From Candidatus Zambryskiibacteriota bacterium (GTDB taxonomy: Bacteria > Patescibacteriota > Minisyncoccia > Phycocordibacterales > WO2-35-19): a stretch of 64,000 nt of DNA. The stretch lies in assembly GCA_003233455.1 (NCBI GenBank), contig QILQ01000012.1, positions 4,441 to 68,440 of the forward strand, written 5' to 3'. Position 1 is the first letter of the stretch, and every line of letters begins with the position of its first letter. The notes under the pieces are model-generated. The model was not told where the DNA came from, did not search any database, and was given only the letters and a program-made list of their open reading frames with translations. Made by a program: the position numbers and the translations under genes. Shown here in pieces: positions 1,868-14,324 of this stretch.

Positions 1868-2645
<778 letters not shown>

Positions 2646-2670
2646 TTTAGTTAAAGTTATCAATACAGAC

Positions 2671-2722
2671 ATTATATCATGGTCTTGTGTTTTGACACAA
2701 TGATAATTTACAACACAAGTGT
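2671..2722 (-). promoter_or_regulatory. Promoter (-10 TATAAT) with two palindromic operator-like boxes (C-box-like) upstream of the C gene
   Basis: Minus-strand TATAAT at 2676..2671; palindromes TTGTGTtttgACACAA (2685-2700) overlapping the -35 position and ACACaaGTGT (2713-2722). Confidence 0.35.
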
Positions 2723-2739
2723 AAAAATATGATAGCGAA

Positions 2740-2986
2740 CCCGAACGACAAAACCATTTCCTTACCTTTCTTTTCTTTCGGTGGAGGGGTCTGGGGAGGA
2801 GCCGAACAAAAAATTGAAAGGAAATGGTTTTGGTCGGGTGGTCGCCCGAGGTACGAGGGCGACGGTGCGGTGGAGTTGAGAGAGTTACCACTAAACTCTG
2901 CCTGCGGAGAGAGTGGTCAGAATTATTTCAGGCTCTCGCCGTGGGGCGTGCGCCCGCAGGTGCACGCATTAAACAGCACGCACTTC
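2740..2986. ncRNA. GC-rich, hairpin-dense ~250 bp element of unknown identity (candidate structured RNA or cluster of palindromic repeat elements)
   Basis: Strong local GC excess in an AT-rich genome; nested perfect stems e.g. CGACAAAACCATTTCC/GGAAATGGTTTTGGTCG, GTCGCCC/GGGCGAC, CCTGCGG/CCGCAGG, GCGTGC/GCACGC; six-frame ORFs here are Arg/Pro/Gly-rich junk. Confidence 0.3.
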
Positions 2987-3060
2987 TGGTGCGGGATGGG
3001 GTAATCGAAACCCCGACTCAAGTTTGGAAAACTCGCATTTTACCACTAAACTAATCCCGC
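2987..3060 (-). tRNA. tRNA-Gly (anticodon UCC), CCA encoded
   Basis: GCGGGAT-TA-GTTT-AGTGGTA-AAAT-G-CGAGT-TTTCCAA-ACTTG-AGTC-GGGGT-TTCGATT-ACCCC-ATCCCGC-A-CCA cloverleaf. Confidence 0.85.
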
Positions 3061-3105
3061 AATACAAGCCATTTTAACATATTTTGTGATAACATCTAAT
3101 TAATT

Positions 3106-3177
3106 GTCGCCGTAGTTCAATGGATAGAACAAGACACTCCTAACGTCTAGATGCAGGTCCGATTCCTGCCGGTGGCA
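3106..3177 (+). tRNA. tRNA-Arg (anticodon CCU), no encoded CCA
   Basis: GTCGCCG-TA-GTTC-AATGGATA-GAAC-A-AGACA-CTCCTAA-CGTCT-AGAT-GCAGG-TCCGATT-CCTGC-CGGTGGC-A. Confidence 0.8.
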
Positions 3178-3190
3178 CATTATGCAAATC

Positions 3191-3214
3191 AAAAATCCCC
3201 GGAAGGGGATTTTT
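3191..3214. terminator. Bidirectional intrinsic terminator between tRNA-Arg and hup
   Basis: AAAAATCCCC-GGAA-GGGGATTTTT perfect hairpin flanked by A/T runs. Confidence 0.6.
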
Positions 3215-3266
3215 GATAAGTGAGAACAAAAGAATTTGTTCTTTGTAAGACGCTATGCGTCTTAAT

Positions 3267-3539
3267 TTACCGAACCGCTTCTTTCAAAGCTTTAGCGGCA
3301 CGAAACTTGGGAACTCTCATCGCCGGCACTTCTACGGCTTCGCCAGTGCGAGGATTTCTAGCCGTCCTAGCTGCTCTTTGCTTAGTTGAGAATATGCCTA
3401 ATCCGGCAATTGAAACTTCGCCCCCTCCTTTAAGAGCATCAACAATATCGTTTATAATAGTTTCAACCACTTCTTCGGATTGAACTTTAGTTCCACCAAG
3501 TTTTGTATGAACGGAATTTGCTAAATCTGCTTTATTCAT
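3267..3539 (-). CDS. hup: HU family DNA-binding protein
   Basis: MNKADLANSVHTKLGGTKVQSEEVVETIINDIVDALKGGGEVSIAGLGIFSTKQRAARTARNPRTGEAVEVPAMRVPKFRAAKALKEAV. Confidence 0.9.
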   Translation of the reverse strand: MNKADLANSVHTKLGGTKVQSEEVVETIINDIVDALKGGGEVSIAGLGIFSTKQRAARTARNPRTGEAVEVPAMRVPKFRAAKALKEAVR

Positions 3540-9074: not shown

Positions 9075-9756
9075 CGGATAAATAGTTAAAATTATAATTT
9101 TTTTCAAATTATGGGTTAAAAAGGAATTACAAAAATTGTTTTAATTTGGGTCGTAACAATAATGGCCCTTGTTGATTTTATTAGTTTTGTTATTTATCGC
9201 ACAATGGCCAGTTTCAGCTTTGGCGAATTGATATTTTCTATATCCCATATAGTGACAGTCTCTTTGATATATTCAACTTTAGTTGGACTAATTGGTTCTT
9301 TTTTTATTGGTTGGTTAGGCGAAAATCTGAATATAGAAAAAATTTAAAAAAGATATTTCTTATTACCTTTTTAATTTCTATTTTAATATTTCTAATATGG
9401 TATACAATTAGTAGTCTTTCATTAATTCAAAAACATTTTTGAAATTCTCTGATAAGATAGTAATATGAAAAAAGATTTTGGAAACTGGCACAATAAAAAA
9501 GATAAATTAGAAAATATAGAAAAAAGACCGTTTTTTAAAGAAAGAGAAATTTGGTTTTGTTATCTTGGTTTAAATATTGGAGACGAAGAAGATGGAAAAA
9601 GATTGGGTTATAAAATTGGCGAGATAAGTAAAAATGATTTTTCTGAATTAAAAAGAAAACTCAAGAAATTACTTCCTTGAGATTCTTTTTACCTCTGTCT
9701 TGCGACAGAGTCGGACCGAAGCCATTTGTGAATATAGTGTAGCAAAATCAAAAAAA

Positions 9757-12700
9757 ATGTCAAGTGATTTTTTAGAATTAAATAAAGCTCAAAGAGAAGC
9801 AGTGGAAACAACCGAAGGTCCTCTGCTTGTTTTGGCGGGAGCGGGAGCTGGTAAAACCAAAACTGTCACCTACAGAATTTTAAATTTAATCCAAAAAGGA
9901 GTTGCTCCAGAAAATATTTTGGCCGTAACTTTTACTAATAAAGCGGCTAGAGAAATGGAAGAAAGAATTTCAAATCTTTTAAAGAAAACTTTAAAACTAA
10001 ACAGACCAATTTCAATAGTTGGCAAACCATTTGTGGCCACTTTTCACGGACTCGGAGCTTTTATTATTAAAGAAAATTTTAGGGAAGCTAAAATTAAAAA
10101 ACATTTTAGTATTTATAATAGAGAAGATTCTAAAAAAGCCATTAGAGAAGCTTTGCGAAAAAATAATTATGATACCAAACAATTTGAACCAGGGAAAATA
10201 CTTTCTATTATTTCTCGCGAGAAAAGCAATTTTGTGGTAATAGATGAATATTTGGAAACAACGGAAGGAAACTATTTCAGAGATATGGTCGCCAAAGTTT
10301 GGCAAGATTATGAGATAATTTTAAAAAAAGAAAACGCTTTAGATTTTGATGACTTGCTTTTGGTAGCCGCCAAACTTTTACAAAAAAAGGAAATTAGAAA
10401 AGTTTACGAAAATAGATGGAAATATATTCATATTGACGAATATCAAGATACCAACAAAGTGCAATACCAAATTGTGGAAGCAATCGGCAGAGGACATCAA
10501 AATGTATGCGCGGTGGGAGATACGGATCAATGTCTTATAAAAGGATCGGAAATAAAAATGGCAGACGGTAGTTTGAAAAAAATTGAGAATATAAAAAAAA
10601 ATCAGTATGTATTATCAAATTATGGAAGCGGTGATTTACGTCCTGCAAAAATCACGCGAAAAATAAAAAGCTTTTTTAAGGGTGATCTTATTAGAATCAA
10701 AACAAAAAAAGGAAAAATTATAACGAGCACACCAAATCATACTCATTTTGCCGGATATCAGTTAGAAATCACTCCTCAATTATATTTCAACTACCTTATG
10801 TACAAAAAAGGAATCGGGTGGAGGATAGGTACAACTCAGGTTCATACAAAAGGACAAATAAAACCTGTTATAGGATTTGTACAAAGATCAAATCAAGAAC
10901 ACGCTGATGCTTCGTGGATTATAGCAGTTCACCAAACATCCAACGAGTCCAGAATCCAAGAATATATTTTTTCGCTTAAATACCAAATTCCAACACTTCC
11001 TTTTGTTCCAAGAAAAGGACTCAGTACTGGAGGATATGTTCATGACAAAAATTACCTTAAAAAAATATTTTCCTCTTTCAATACAGAAAAATCCGCCCTT
11101 AAATTACTTTCTGATTTGGGGCTACAATATAATTACCCTCACCATTACCCTCAATCGTCTAATTCTAGTAGAATAAATATAAATGTAACCCTGTGTGGAG
11201 ATAGACGGGGACAAAATCCATTTCATAGAATTTCTGTTCATGGAAATAATAAAATGGAAAAGAAAATACTTGAAACTGCTGGATTTTCTGTTCGCCAAGC
11301 AAAATTAAACACTAAAAATTGGAGATGTGAAAAAGGTTCTTCTAATTACGGAGAAATTTGTATGTTGGCCACGAAGATAGCTTCACTTTTTGATAACTCA
11401 AAAATAATCTTCAGAGCCAGACTTGGTGGTACAAAATCTAACCCAAAGAACAGCAATTCTTTACCGTGTATACCAGCAGGTTCTGTAATGCTAGGTATGG
11501 CTTTATTTTCTATTGACGGCTATGATATTGTATCAAAAATTTCACGAATATCAGTAACCAAAAAAGAAGTTTTTGACATTGATGTTGAAAAAACTCACAA
11601 CTTTATTACAAATGATATAGTAACCCACAATTGTATTTATAGTTGGCGAGGAGCTAACATAAAAAATATTTTGAATTTTGAAAAAGATTACAAAAATGCG
11701 AAAATAGTGGTCTTGGAACAAAATTATCGTTCTACTAAAACTATTCTGGCAGTGGCCAATAAAATTATTGAAAAAAATAAATTCAGAAAAGAAAGAACTT
11801 TAACGACAGAAAATTCAGTGGGTGAAAAAATTGGAATTTTTGAAGCTCTAACCGAAAATCATGAAGCTCAATTTATAGTGGAAAAAGTTAAAGAATTACA
11901 AAAAAAAGGAGTAAATCTTTCTGATATGGCGGTTTTATACAGAGCGAATTTTCAATCACGCGTTTTGGAAGAAGAATTTTTAGCTAAAGATGTGCCTTAC
12001 CAAGTGTTGGGAACTAAATTTTTTGACAGAAAAGAAATTAAAGATATTTTGGCATTTTTAAGGTTTTGTTTTAATCCGGAAAGTATTTCTGATTTAAAAA
12101 GAATAATAAATGTGCCTCCCAGAGGTATAGGTAAAATTACTCTTTTAAAAATTGTGGAAGGGAAAGAAAAAAATTTGCCAGTCAAAATGAAAATAAAAAT
12201 GAAAATTTTTAGAGATCTTTTGAGAAAAGTTAAAGATTTCGCCAGTCAAAATCCATTATCTAAAACTATTTTATTTATAGCGAGAGAAGTCGGTTTAAAT
12301 GAAAATCTTAAAAAAACAGAAGAAGGGGCAGAGAAGATAGAAAATATAAAAGAGCTGGTAACCTTGGCTTCGCATTATGATAAAATATTTAAAGAAGATA
12401 ATGAAGGAGTAAAAAACTGGGATGAAGCGGTGGAAAAATTATTAGAAGATACTTCTTTGGCGTCAGATCAAGACAGTGACAAAAAAGAAAAAAAGGGAGT
12501 TCGTTTAATGACAGTGCATGCCAGTAAAGGTCTTGAATTTACTTATATTTTCATTACCGGCTTGGAAGAGGGACTTTTTCCGCATAGTAGAAGTCAAGAT
12601 GAAAATTTGAGCGAAGAAGAAGCCGAGGAAGAACGCCGACTTTTTTATGTGGCTATTACTCGCGCTAAGAAAAAACTTTTTCTTTCTTACGCTCAAACTC

Positions 12701-12849
12701 GCACCATTTTTGGTAGCAGAGGAATTAATATTCCCTCTGAATTTATACTGGAAATTCCAGATAAATATTTGGAGAGAGAATCTTTGGATTCTCTCCCTAC
12801 GGGAGACAGGTACTCAAAAAGAAAACCACTTATTCATATTGAGTTTTAG
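9757..12849 (+). CDS. uvrD: UvrD/PcrA-family ATP-dependent DNA helicase, intein-containing
   Basis: Walker A AGAGAGKT, motif III GDTDQ/CIYSWRGAN split by intein, C-terminal VHASKGLEF...YVAITRAKKKL. Confidence 0.85.
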   Translation: MSSDFLELNKAQREAVETTEGPLLVLAGAGAGKTKTVTYRILNLIQKGVAPENILAVTFTNKAAREMEERISNLLKKTLKLNRPISIVGKPFVATFHGLGAFIIKENFREAKIKKHFSIYNREDSKKAIREALRKNNYDTKQFEPGKILSIISREKSNFVVIDEYLETTEGNYFRDMVAKVWQDYEIILKKENALDFDDLLLVAAKLLQKKEIRKVYENRWKYIHIDEYQDTNKVQYQIVEAIGRGHQNVCAVGDTDQCLIKGSEIKMADGSLKKIENIKKNQYVLSNYGSGDLRPAKITRKIKSFFKGDLIRIKTKKGKIITSTPNHTHFAGYQLEITPQLYFNYLMYKKGIGWRIGTTQVHTKGQIKPVIGFVQRSNQEHADASWIIAVHQTSNESRIQEYIFSLKYQIPTLPFVPRKGLSTGGYVHDKNYLKKIFSSFNTEKSALKLLSDLGLQYNYPHHYPQSSNSSRININVTLCGDRRGQNPFHRISVHGNNKMEKKILETAGFSVRQAKLNTKNWRCEKGSSNYGEICMLATKIASLFDNSKIIFRARLGGTKSNPKNSNSLPCIPAGSVMLGMALFSIDGYDIVSKISRISVTKKEVFDIDVEKTHNFITNDIVTHNCIYSWRGANIKNILNFEKDYKNAKIVVLEQNYRSTKTILAVANKIIEKNKFRKERTLTTENSVGEKIGIFEALTENHEAQFIVEKVKELQKKGVNLSDMAVLYRANFQSRVLEEEFLAKDVPYQVLGTKFFDRKEIKDILAFLRFCFNPESISDLKRIINVPPRGIGKITLLKIVEGKEKNLPVKMKIKMKIFRDLLRKVKDFASQNPLSKTILFIAREVGLNENLKKTEEGAEKIENIKELVTLASHYDKIFKEDNEGVKNWDEAVEKLLEDTSLASDQDSDKKEKKGVRLMTVHASKGLEFTYIFITGLEEGLFPHSRSQDENLSEEEAEEERRLFYVAITRAKKKLFLSYAQTRTIFGSRGINIPSEFILEIPDKYLERESLDSLPTGDRYSKRKPLIHIEF
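10531..11631 (+). other. Intein (367 aa) inserted in helicase motif III of UvrD/PcrA
   Basis: Block A CLIKGSEI after GDTDQ; block B TPNHTHF; blocks F/G VFDIDVEKTHNFITNDIVTHN followed by +1 Cys (CIYSWRGAN). Confidence 0.75.
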
Positions 12850-12887: not shown

Positions 12888-13136
12888 ATGACTACCCAAA
12901 TAATGTTCAAAATTGAAAATAAGCTCAAGAAAGCAGCTCAAGAAAGAGCCAAAGAAGAGGGAATTACTCTAAGTGATTTTTATAAATCTGCCACCAAATC
13001 ATTTGTGGAAGGTAAAATAACAGTAGGAATAATTTTTGAAGAAGAGAGTTTAAACGATTACACAAAAGAAAGTTTATTGTCTTTAAAAAAAGGATTAGCT
13101 GATTGTAAAAAAGGCAAAGTTTTTAGAACAAGATGA
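12888..13136 (+). CDS. RelB/DinJ-family antitoxin
   Basis: IMFKIENKLKKAAQERAKEEGITLSDFYKSATKSFVEG; overlaps toxin gene by ATGA. Confidence 0.55.
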   Translation: MTTQIMFKIENKLKKAAQERAKEEGITLSDFYKSATKSFVEGKITVGIIFEEESLNDYTKESLLSLKKGLADCKKGKVFRTR

Positions 13137-13390
13137 AAATATTTTGGACGAATGAATTTAATAAAAATTTAAAACTTCTCCCAACTAAAACAAGAAGGCT
13201 CTACAAAAAACAGGAAAATATCTTTTTTGTAAACTGGAAAGATCCTCGCCTCCACACAAAAAAACTAAAAGGAGTTAATCAGATTTTTTCTTTTAGAATT
13301 ACAAGAAAATATAGAGTTTTATTTAAAATTACAGATAAATCCTCAATTTTGTTTGTTTCAATAGGTCACAGAAAAAATATTTATGACTAA
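13133..13390 (+). CDS. RelE/ParE(YafQ)-family toxin
   Basis: 85 aa, ...FSFRITRKYRVLFKITDKSSILFVSIGHRKNIY. Confidence 0.6.
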   Translation: MKIFWTNEFNKNLKLLPTKTRRLYKKQENIFFVNWKDPRLHTKKLKGVNQIFSFRITRKYRVLFKITDKSSILFVSIGHRKNIYD

Positions 13391-14324
13391 ATTTCAACCA
13401 AAAAAATCATTGGGGCAACATTTTTTGAGAGATTCAAAAATACTCAAGAGAATTGTTGATTTTGCCGAGATTAAAAAAACAGATATTATGGTAGAAGTGG
13501 GACCTGGAGAAGGAGGACTTACTAAATTACTTCTTGAACAAGCGAAAAAAGTGATAGCGGTTGAAAAAGATGAAGAGATGGTAATTTTTTTGAAAGGCAA
13601 ATTTAAAAAAGAAATCAAAGAAGGAAAATTAGAAATTGTTGAAGGAGATATTTTAGATTTTTATTCGCAAAATATTTTCTCGCCACTTGCGGACTCAAAC
13701 TATTTTGCCACCAACTATAAATTAGTTGGCAATATCCCATATTACATAACTGGAGCTTTGTTTAAAAAAGCTTTAGAAGCTTCAAATTTTCCAAAATCAA
13801 TAACTTTTGTAGTCCAAAAAGAGGTAGCACAAAGAATTATGGCTCAAAGATGCCTGCCTGCCGGTGGGCAGGGAAAAGAAAGTATTTTGAGTATTTCCAT
13901 AAAAGTTTATGGCAAGCCGAAATATGGGGGAGTTATAAAAGCGGGCAGTTTTTATCCAAAACCAAAAGTTGATTCGGCTATTTTATCAGTAAGAGGTATT
14001 TCAAAAGAAAAATTTCAAAGGACTGACCTTAAAAAAAATCCCAAAGGTCAGTCCTTGGGAAAAGAAAATTTTTCTTTTGGGGAAATACTTGAGCAGAATT
14101 TCTTTAAAATATTAAAAATAGGATTTTCTCATAAAAGAAAGTTGCTTATTAAAAATTTGGAGAACCTGTCAAGGGTCGCCTTTTTGGGGCAACTTTCAAA
14201 GGCGACCCTTGACACTTCAAATCTAAAAGAAATTTTTGAAAAATGTGGAATTTCAGATAAAGCCAGAGCAGAAGATTTAAAAGTTGAAGATTGGATTTGC
14301 TTGAGCAAAAAGTTTTCACCATAA
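13383..14324 (+). CDS. rsmA: 16S rRNA (adenine1518/1519-N6) dimethyltransferase RsmA/KsgA, with in-frame palindromic insertions
   Basis: LGQHFLRDSKILKRIV...VEVGPGEGGLT...FYPKPKVDSAIL...FSHKRKLLIKNL; longer than usual owing to inserted segments. Confidence 0.85.
   Translation: MTKFQPKKSLGQHFLRDSKILKRIVDFAEIKKTDIMVEVGPGEGGLTKLLLEQAKKVIAVEKDEEMVIFLKGKFKKEIKEGKLEIVEGDILDFYSQNIFSPLADSNYFATNYKLVGNIPYYITGALFKKALEASNFPKSITFVVQKEVAQRIMAQRCLPAGGQGKESILSISIKVYGKPKYGGVIKAGSFYPKPKVDSAILSVRGISKEKFQRTDLKKNPKGQSLGKENFSFGEILEQNFFKILKIGFSHKRKLLIKNLENLSRVAFLGQLSKATLDTSNLKEIFEKCGISDKARAEDLKVEDWICLSKKFSP
14018..14056. repeat. Perfect 13-bp inverted repeat (AAGGACTGACCTT/AAGGTCAGTCCTT) inside rsmA coding sequence
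   Basis: Direct reading; encodes RTDLKKNPKGQSLG within the ORF. Confidence 0.7.
14167..14214. repeat. Perfect 17-bp inverted repeat (TGTCAAGGGTCGCCTTT/AAAGGCGACCCTTGACA) inside rsmA coding sequence
   Basis: Direct reading; encodes SRVAFLGQLSKATLDTS inserted between conserved KRKLLIKNLENL and NLKEIFEKCGI. Confidence 0.75.

Follow-up and report, generated by a model that had tools for sequence, protein, structure and literature searches.

Inteins of UvrD-type helicases are an established group. A survey counted 16 UvrD inteins (PMC4760082) and the UvrD/Rep/PcrA intein family has been tabulated (PMC5874633), although in the literature we found no description of the nested domain or endonuclease of a UvrD or PcrA intein. 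Reviews and surveys of inteins name LAGLIDADG and HNH endonucleases and, on rare occasions, Vsr-like or Endo VII-like ones. In actinophages, inteins were reported to carry LAGLIDADG and HNH endonucleases in frame, LAGLIDADG and Vsr-like endonucleases antisense, and Endo VII-like endonucleases out of frame (10.1101/2025.01.02.630785), and GIY-YIG enzymes are stated to be absent from inteins (PMC1564403, a GIY-YIG phylogenomic analysis; PMC2677866, the fractured-genes paper). The intein described here lies in a 64,000-nucleotide stretch (the window) of contig QILQ01000012.1, from a Candidatus Zambryskiibacteriota bacterium of the candidate phyla radiation (CPR), where it interrupts motif III of a PcrA/UvrD helicase. 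As UvrD/PcrA inteins were known already, the novelty is the nested domain, which is conserved and two-lobed and matches no catalogued family. We consider it probable that the element is an ordinary class 1 intein carrying a previously undescribed bipartite putative homing endonuclease.

The helicase open reading frame (ORF) runs on the forward strand to position 12849, from an ATG at 9757 or a TTG at 9700. The TTG opens the ORF 19 codons 5' of the ATG, and similarity to PcrA begins at the ATG. The product is a superfamily 1 helicase of the PcrA/UvrD type by its matches to Pfam UvrD-helicase (8.1e-76) and UvrD_C (1.7e-75), and TIGR01073 (pcrA) matches it as two blocks, the gap between them being the intein. 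The N-extein (9757–10530, 258 residues from the ATG) falls within the UvrD-helicase and TIGR01073 matches and ends with CAVGDTDQ, the first half of motif III, whereas the C-extein (11632–12849, 405 residues plus the stop codon), which contains the UvrD_C match, starts with the second half, CIYSWRGAN. Motif III is an essential catalytic motif of UvrD-like helicases. The insert, 1101 nucleotides encoding 367 residues (10531–11631, forward strand), is in frame. At its borders the codons read CAA (the Gln of GDTDQ) followed by TGT (Cys1, 10531–10533), and CAC AAT (His-Asn, 11626–11631) followed by a second TGT (11632–11634), which encodes the +1 Cys, the predicted extein nucleophile for transesterification. 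By this codon reading the first-pass annotation, which had proposed a 367-residue intein from sequence inspection, had the coordinates exactly right; all of the peptides it quoted (CLIKGSEI, TPNHTHF, VFDIDVEKTHNFITNDIVTHN and CIYSWRGAN) are found in the translation, and the Pfam, TIGR01073 and PcrA 1pjr alignments agree with its placement of the insertion in motif III of a UvrD/PcrA helicase.

Upon removal of the intein the protein aligned end to end with Geobacillus PcrA (1pjr; E 3.6e-149) without a gap at the junction, where the aligned sequence is CAVGDTDQ-CIYSWRGANIKNIL. Orthologs lacking the intein are likewise contiguous at the site, and the extein junctions are clean. In the 19 closest orthologous loci a single codon separates the matches to the N- and C-exteins, and it encodes Asn in all 19 (GDxDQ-N-IYSWRG). 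The claim that splicing restores canonical motif III is thus borne out without gaps as far as GDTDQ, but the next residue is Cys in the window copy where PcrA 1pjr has Ser and the closest intein-free CPR orthologs have Asn. Judging from these alignments, Ser, Asn and Cys are all tolerated at the junction position, and it must be the intein that brought the Cys.

Three curated models match the insert above their cut-offs: Pfam Intein_splicing (PF14890) at 46.0 bits versus 35.8, TIGR01445 (intein_Nterm) at 32.6 versus 24.5 over residues 1–70, and TIGR01443 (intein_Cterm) at 28.7 versus 15.6 over residues 346–367. The N-terminal part of the Hint domain (residues 1–75; 10531–10755, forward strand) contains block A (CLIKGSEI) and block B (TPNHTHF, with Thr67-x-x-His70) and gives a profile match to the N-termini of Hint, hedgehog and PI-SceI proteins. 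The C-terminal part (residues 313–367; 11467–11631) contains blocks F and G (VFDIDVEKTHNFITNDIVTHN). Block B (TPNH) and blocks F/G align with those of the Ssp DnaB and gp41-1 inteins, and residues S66, T67, H70 and H72 are at least 90% conserved among relatives. The residues of class 1 splicing are all present: Cys1, Thr67-Pro-Asn-His70, a C-terminal VTHN ending in His366-Asn367, and the +1 Cys. The AlphaFold2 model of the intein had a pLDDT of 89.9 and a pTM of 0.87, and Foldseek matched it to PI-SceI, VMA inteins and mini-inteins (E 3e-10 to 1e-3), the mini-inteins giving target-normalised TM-scores of 0.66–0.81 at probability 1.00. Because curated models score above their cut-offs, the splicing residues are in place, the exteins join without a gap and a Hint fold is predicted, the insert is confirmed as a genuine class 1 Hint intein, with splicing itself predicted from the conserved residues. 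As an intein it is unremarkable, adding one more member to those known from this host protein and site, and it is among the first few on record for CPR bacteria. To our knowledge, inteins are barely documented in that group.

The conserved Cys1, Thr67/His70, His366-Asn367 and +1 Cys predict the usual splicing chemistry. The precursor would be translated as a single 1030-residue polypeptide, in which the Hint domain (residues 1–75 plus 313–367) would catalyze (i) an N-S acyl shift at Cys1, (ii) transesterification to the +1 Cys, (iii) cyclisation of Asn367 helped by His366 and (iv) an S-N shift, to give a 663-residue helicase containing GDTDQ-C-IYSWRGA. The reading in which the insert is no intein at all, being a helicase domain peculiar to the lineage and retained in the mature protein, fares very badly against these data: the splicing residues are present, the curated models exceed their cut-offs, relatives cleanly lack the insert, the insert splits an essential catalytic motif, and the Hint fold is predicted with high confidence. 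We regard that reading as close to refuted.

The description of the source as a CPR-like genome is right because the nearest relatives of the C-extein, and the nearest PcrA orthologs, come from Candidatus Zambryskibacteria and other Patescibacteria metagenome-assembled genomes (MAGs; C-extein identity 70–81%). None of the 80 nearest PcrA orthologs in GTDB, Zambryskibacteria included, contains intein sequence. The only close intein-bearing relative found was L001, a 3.2-kb metagenome contig (JGI 3300038404, Ga0393997_0054600) at about 70% amino acid identity. In L001 the Leu codon of the conserved TLCGDRRG motif is an in-frame TAG (L001:2662–2664) and the motif has decayed to CAGKRN. Either the endonuclease domain is decaying there, and the TAG interrupts the helicase gene as well, or the TAG is a sequencing error.

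Between Hint blocks B and F, and in frame with them, lies a middle domain of about 240 residues (approximately residues 76–312). Neither as a single sequence, nor as profiles, nor through relatives scanned one at a time (sets of 22, 44 and 40) did it give a significant match to Pfam, PHROGs, NCBIfam or PDB sequences. The earlier remark that no LAGLIDADG motif is visible was correct: there was no match to the LAGLIDADG Pfam models, even at E<=10, in the intein or in sets of 22, 44 and 40 relatives scanned individually, and the HNH Pfam models matched neither the intein, its middle part nor the relatives. A ββα element at residues 216–249 has C-G-D, rather than the His of the HNH/His-Me finger enzymes, at the end of its first strand. 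An endonuclease hidden out of frame or antisense was rejected, as the longest ORF in the other frames or strand within the intein is 58 residues, which is too short.

A family profile built from 22 sequences was searched against 1.84 billion representatives (clusters at 50% identity) and gave 1,889 clusters at E<=1e-3, with 978 at E<=1e-10. Over 96 full-length sequences about fifteen residues are 94–100% conserved, and all of these are intact in the window copy. Of the two suggestions in the first-pass annotation, that the middle domain is degenerate or is of another type, the data favour the second; the domain is conserved in 1,889 clusters, its invariant residues are intact in this copy, and by sequence it is not LAGLIDADG. 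Judged from this conservation, the middle domain is a real, selected and very large unannotated family that is not lineage-specific. Among 82 full-length matches, 78 have G[DE]xxQ directly before the first Cys at the expected distance upstream and 65 have HN followed by [SC]I[YF] downstream (+1 residue Ser in 52 and Cys in 13), and thus the family is bound to one insertion point, motif III. All 11 of the host proteins checked are UvrD-family helicases, some with extra inteins of the LAGLIDADG_3 or DUF559/Vsr-like types elsewhere. Named sources include Holophagaceae, Gallionella, Steroidobacteraceae, Solirubrobacterales and Planctomycetota, together with cultured phages of Escherichia, Klebsiella, Salmonella, Bacillus and Streptococcus. 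The intein is not special to CPR bacteria: its family is spread over many bacterial phyla and is also present in cultured coliphages. No free-standing copies of the domain were found; the short matches were frameshifted or truncated gene calls on high-GC contigs.

Several of these records merit mention in their own right. Four giant UvrD-like helicases of 1872–2536 residues (P0121, P0125, P0176 and P0193) carry two or three inteins each, the one in motif III being accompanied upstream by inteins of the LAGLIDADG_3 or other types. A UvrD-family protein of 1210 residues (P0122) has a second contiguous intein at another site (approximately residues 250–544) whose nested domain matches, in frame, DUF559 and REase_MTES_1575 (Vsr-like). 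This protein may be worth its own look, as the literature examined has Vsr-like domains only with split inteins or antisense. Database gene calls for the helicase are often truncated or split inside the intein, even on contigs of 100–770 kb (for example P0014, P0016, P0017 and P0018), mostly in high-GC Actinomycetota with apparent frameshifts; this points to systematic mis-annotation or frequent pseudogenisation at the helicase locus and makes the intein relevant to annotation, given that many database entries for this gene are affected. Finally, one BFVD model, A0A8S5TZY8 (Myoviridae sp. ctCuC1, annotated as an adenine specific DNA methyltransferase of 782 residues), matched the middle domain in Foldseek over 133 columns (E 8e-8, rmsd 3.1), from which one lobe of the middle domain may also occur in a host protein that is not a helicase. 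The out-of-frame HNH element of ShiLan (PMC11855218), considered by way of this phage methyltransferase match, has an unrelated layout.

Evidence of mobility comes from the phage members. Escherichia phage PaulScherrer (Bas60; MZ501100.1) has an intein at the same site (positions 2252–3292) that is 29% identical to the window copy over residues 88–367. The mature peptide labelled intein in MZ501100.1 takes in the +1 Cys and is therefore one residue too long. The spliced PaulScherrer helicase junction matches 210 phage records, 38 of which are split by the element. In close relatives without the intein, for example phage alia (NC_052655.1), the junction regions are about 96–97% identical and uninterrupted. 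Over 663 nucleotides PaulScherrer (intein-plus) and alia (intein-minus) differ at 35 positions, and 26 of the differences fall between -27 and +50 of the insertion point, a divergence of 33% in that interval versus 1.5% elsewhere. Such clustering is the mark expected of co-conversion during homing or of target-site divergence under endonuclease pressure. Decayed copies are also seen. In the Planctomycetota protein P0030 the intein (residues 251–494) lacks residues 80–196, the N lobe and linker described below, and keeps the C lobe. From their sequences, this deletion and the L001 stop codon would be decay stages typical of a homing cycle. The sporadic presence of the element, the clustered differences in phages and the decayed copies suit a mobile, selfish element better than a fixed regulator.

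Two points weigh against homing as a description of the window copy itself. The homing footprint comes from phage relatives at 29% identity rather than from the CPR lineage, and GC content is the same for intein (0.327), extein (0.322) and window (0.323), so this copy need not be recently mobile; a recent foreign origin was rejected on these values. Equal GC content also fits a reading in which the middle domain is no nuclease, being a domesticated DNA-binding or regulatory module, for instance one coupling helicase splicing to DNA or stress, within a vertically inherited, immobile intein. Inteins of repair proteins have been proposed to splice conditionally (PMC4760082), the strong conservation may reflect a benefit to the host, and the β-saddle of the C lobe (below) looks DNA-binding. 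However, all 80 nearest orthologs lack the element, the phages show presence and absence with clustered differences, and decayed copies exist. We think a regulatory module very improbable.

The AlphaFold model divides the middle domain into two lobes. The N lobe (residues 78–165; 10762–11025, forward strand) has the order ββαβα, with strands at 85–92, 96–105 and 127–134 and helices at 115–122 and 137–151, and is the putative catalytic part, GIY-YIG-like by its model, its conservation and its resemblance to the GIY-YIG domain of UvrC (1yd6). Its family-invariant residues are Y88, R98, G100, R119, E123, D126, W129, E144 and P154, and the invariant polar residues of the family cluster in this lobe. 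The coliphage copy, at 29% identity, keeps most of the N-lobe invariants, the exception being D126, which is Gln. When the N-lobe profile was searched against 177,635 PDB sequences the top match was 1yd6, at E 0.54, which is not significant. In that alignment Y88 falls on the Tyr of GIY, R98-I-G100 on Y-V-G and E144 on the metal-binding Glu of EALILE, and the window sequence QRSNQEHAD falls on UvrC QRLVEEIAD (QRxxxExAD). The Y88 residue, within YLM, is 100% conserved and corresponds to the Tyr of UvrC CYLM, as expected of a GIY motif; E144 is 98% conserved. Pfam GIY-YIG (PF01541) matched 3 of 44 family members (best E 0.036) and was the only Pfam family to match more than one member. Alignment of the N lobe with 86 UvrC N-termini by hhalign gave P 0.0045 over 68 columns at a probability of 8%, and in a column-shuffle control 4 of 300 shuffles reached the real score (about 0.013). 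GIY-YIG Seg-like endonucleases are also among the weak fold matches in BFVD.

A number of observations speak against a GIY-YIG assignment. Every one of these signals is below threshold (PDB E 0.54, Pfam 0.036, hhalign probability 8%), NCBIfam and PHROGs gave no match, and the I-TevI single sequence gave no signal against the N-lobe profile. The spacing of the YIG motif is right and its G100 is invariant, but its Tyr is replaced by an invariant Arg (R98-I-G100). There is no match to the conserved Asn, its place in the family being taken by Y-x-I-P-T. The model lacks the helix on which UvrC and I-TevI carry their catalytic Arg, and the invariant R119, which in the shortest members lies 8 residues after the Gly, aligns with a later Arg of UvrC (that of QRL), not the catalytic one. 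Moreover, GIY-YIG structures come after LAGLIDADG enzymes in the Foldseek ranking of PDB matches, and mini-inteins match the whole intein less well than inteins with a LAGLIDADG domain do. Because neither the match to the family model nor the Tyr of YIG holds up, we do not assign the domain to the GIY-YIG family, and GIY-YIG ancestry of the N lobe is put forward tentatively, with odds that are about even.

If that ancestry were wrong, the middle domain might be a homing endonuclease without relation to GIY-YIG and novel in fold or catalytic type, with a possible His/Arg-based site in the C lobe (P203-H204, R214 and H232) or a composite site between the lobes. No nuclease family is matched significantly, H204 and H232 are 94–98% conserved over the 96 sequences, and the evidence of mobility is independent of fold, all of which such an enzyme would accommodate. 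However, H232 and W264 are lost in the coliphage copy, in which the N-lobe residues are kept, and GIY-YIG is the only recurrent weak sequence signal. We consider a wholly new type unlikely.

The remainder of the middle domain (residues 166–312; 11026–11466, forward strand) consists of a two-helix linker (173–195) and the C lobe, which has the order ββαββαβ over residues 216–298 and is read from the AlphaFold model and weak Foldseek matches as a putative DNA-binding β-saddle. Its conserved residues are P203-H204, R214, C222, R226, H232 and W264-R265. The C lobe matched nothing in Pfam or among PDB sequences. The top Foldseek matches of the middle domain in the PDB were LAGLIDADG enzymes, eIF1/SUI1 and the MotA C-terminal domain, all at E>1e-3; single-motif LAGLIDADG enzymes were matched weakly (E 3.5e-3 to 0.5, TM about 0.2, 74–80 columns). 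These matches were assigned to the C lobe by inference from secondary-structure order, and because the LAGLIDADG and SUI1 matches of 70–90 columns fit its order of elements the C lobe is read as a β-saddle DNA-binding module. The C lobe may descend from a LAGLIDADG half-domain, but no catalytic acid is conserved in it.

The structural matches raise the alternative that the entire middle domain derives from a LAGLIDADG enzyme by strong divergence or degeneration, being either an inactive remnant or a variant without a recognisable motif, in which case the intein would be canonical. The best PDB matches include I-PnoMI, I-OnuI, I-Vdi141I (probability 0.92, 74 columns), I-CvuI and I-CeuI; for the whole intein, PI-SceI, PI-PfuI and the VMA inteins of Tli and Pho (E 3e-10 to 1e-5) are better matches than mini-inteins; and the C lobe behind its LLxDxGL helix has the α-ββαββα order of a LAGLIDADG half-domain. 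Set against this, there is no LAGLIDADG Pfam match in the intein or about 100 relatives, and the Foldseek matches to LAGLIDADG enzymes all fall short of E<1e-3, with TM about 0.2. The C lobe is compatible with the LAGLIDADG core order, but in the N lobe strand 1 is not preceded by a helix. A comparison of the lobes with each other showed no duplication (hhalign P 0.11), and similarity to two LAGLIDADG_3 intein domains was rejected as well (hhalign P at least 0.06). The acid at the candidate helix end is not conserved (only L192 exceeds 80%), and the invariant polar residues are in the N lobe. A decaying remnant would not be expected to be conserved over 1,889 clusters. As both the motif and the model match fail, we do not assign the domain to LAGLIDADG, and a LAGLIDADG enzyme in disguise seems to us improbable.

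We infer nuclease activity, a division of labour between the lobes and the GIY-YIG ancestry from the data above. The nested domain is most likely the homing endonuclease of the element, bipartite in the manner of I-TevI, with a catalytic lobe, a linker and a DNA-binding lobe. The ββαβα N lobe would hold the active site (Y88, R98, R119, E123 and E144) as a remodelled GIY-YIG domain and DNA binding would fall to the β-saddle of the C lobe. Cleavage would occur in the intein-less coding sequence for motif III, and repair from an intein-plus copy would spread the element. In its fullest form, as an unrecognised endonuclease type that joins a remodelled GIY-YIG-derived lobe (Tyr / Arg-x-Gly / Glu) to a β-saddle lobe resembling a LAGLIDADG half, in a large motif III family, this is a possibility that we entertain with some doubt.

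In thousands of genomes the family occupies a helicase motif that is among the most conserved, and in cultured coliphages it behaves as a mobile element. If the domain is an active nuclease, it would be a new homing endonuclease scaffold and potentially a modular genome-editing reagent with a long recognition site, inteins would have captured nucleases more often than thought, and hopping of the element between phyla by way of an invariant helicase motif would be explained. If the GIY-YIG hybrid structure is true, this would be the first enzyme of the GIY-YIG class in an intein and effectively a new structural family of homing endonucleases, for which E. coli phage Bas60 would be a ready experimental model.

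As to the surroundings, two small overlapping ORFs lie directly 3' of pcrA (12888–13390, forward strand). The second (13133–13390) has a 29-bit match to the ParE toxin family (PF05016), and the first probably encodes its antitoxin. This ParE-type pair is followed by rsmA/ksgA (13383–14324). No uvrC gene is present in the 64,000-nucleotide window. Searches for identical copies of proteins encoded in the window gave no recorded match.

In comparison with known systems, the window intein resembles PI-SceI, PI-PfuI and the Tli and Pho VMA inteins, its best whole-chain Foldseek matches, in having a Hint domain split between blocks B and F by a domain of about 200–300 residues. It differs from the LAGLIDADG inteins in lacking the motif, the Pfam match and the pseudo-dimeric duplication, and the TM-scores are about 0.28. 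With the non-canonical intein endonucleases (HNH, Vsr-like/DUF559 and Endo VII-like; 10.1101/2025.01.02.630785; PMC2677866) it shares possession of a non-LAGLIDADG module, but none of those families matches the window domain, which is in frame. With UvrC 1yd6 the N lobe shares the ββαβα order, a Tyr in strand 1, x-I-G ten residues further on in strand 2, a QRxxxExAD helix and a Glu in the final helix. The bipartite plan of catalytic lobe, linker and DNA-binding lobe is similar to that of I-TevI and the Seg proteins, whereas the DNA-binding part is a putative β-saddle and not the NUMOD, zinc-finger or helix-turn-helix (HTH) module of GIY-YIG nucleases. Relative to the known UvrD/Rep/PcrA inteins, the host here is a CPR bacterium with no sampled relative carrying the element, and the +1 Cys replaces an Asn. 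The closest described counterpart is the intein-containing UvrD/Rep family helicase precursor of PaulScherrer (Bas60), for which MZ501100 gives only the label intein without describing the middle domain, and which shares the helicase family and insertion point (GDxxQ-C...HN-[C/S]IY) of the element in the window and has a homologous Hint domain and middle domain.

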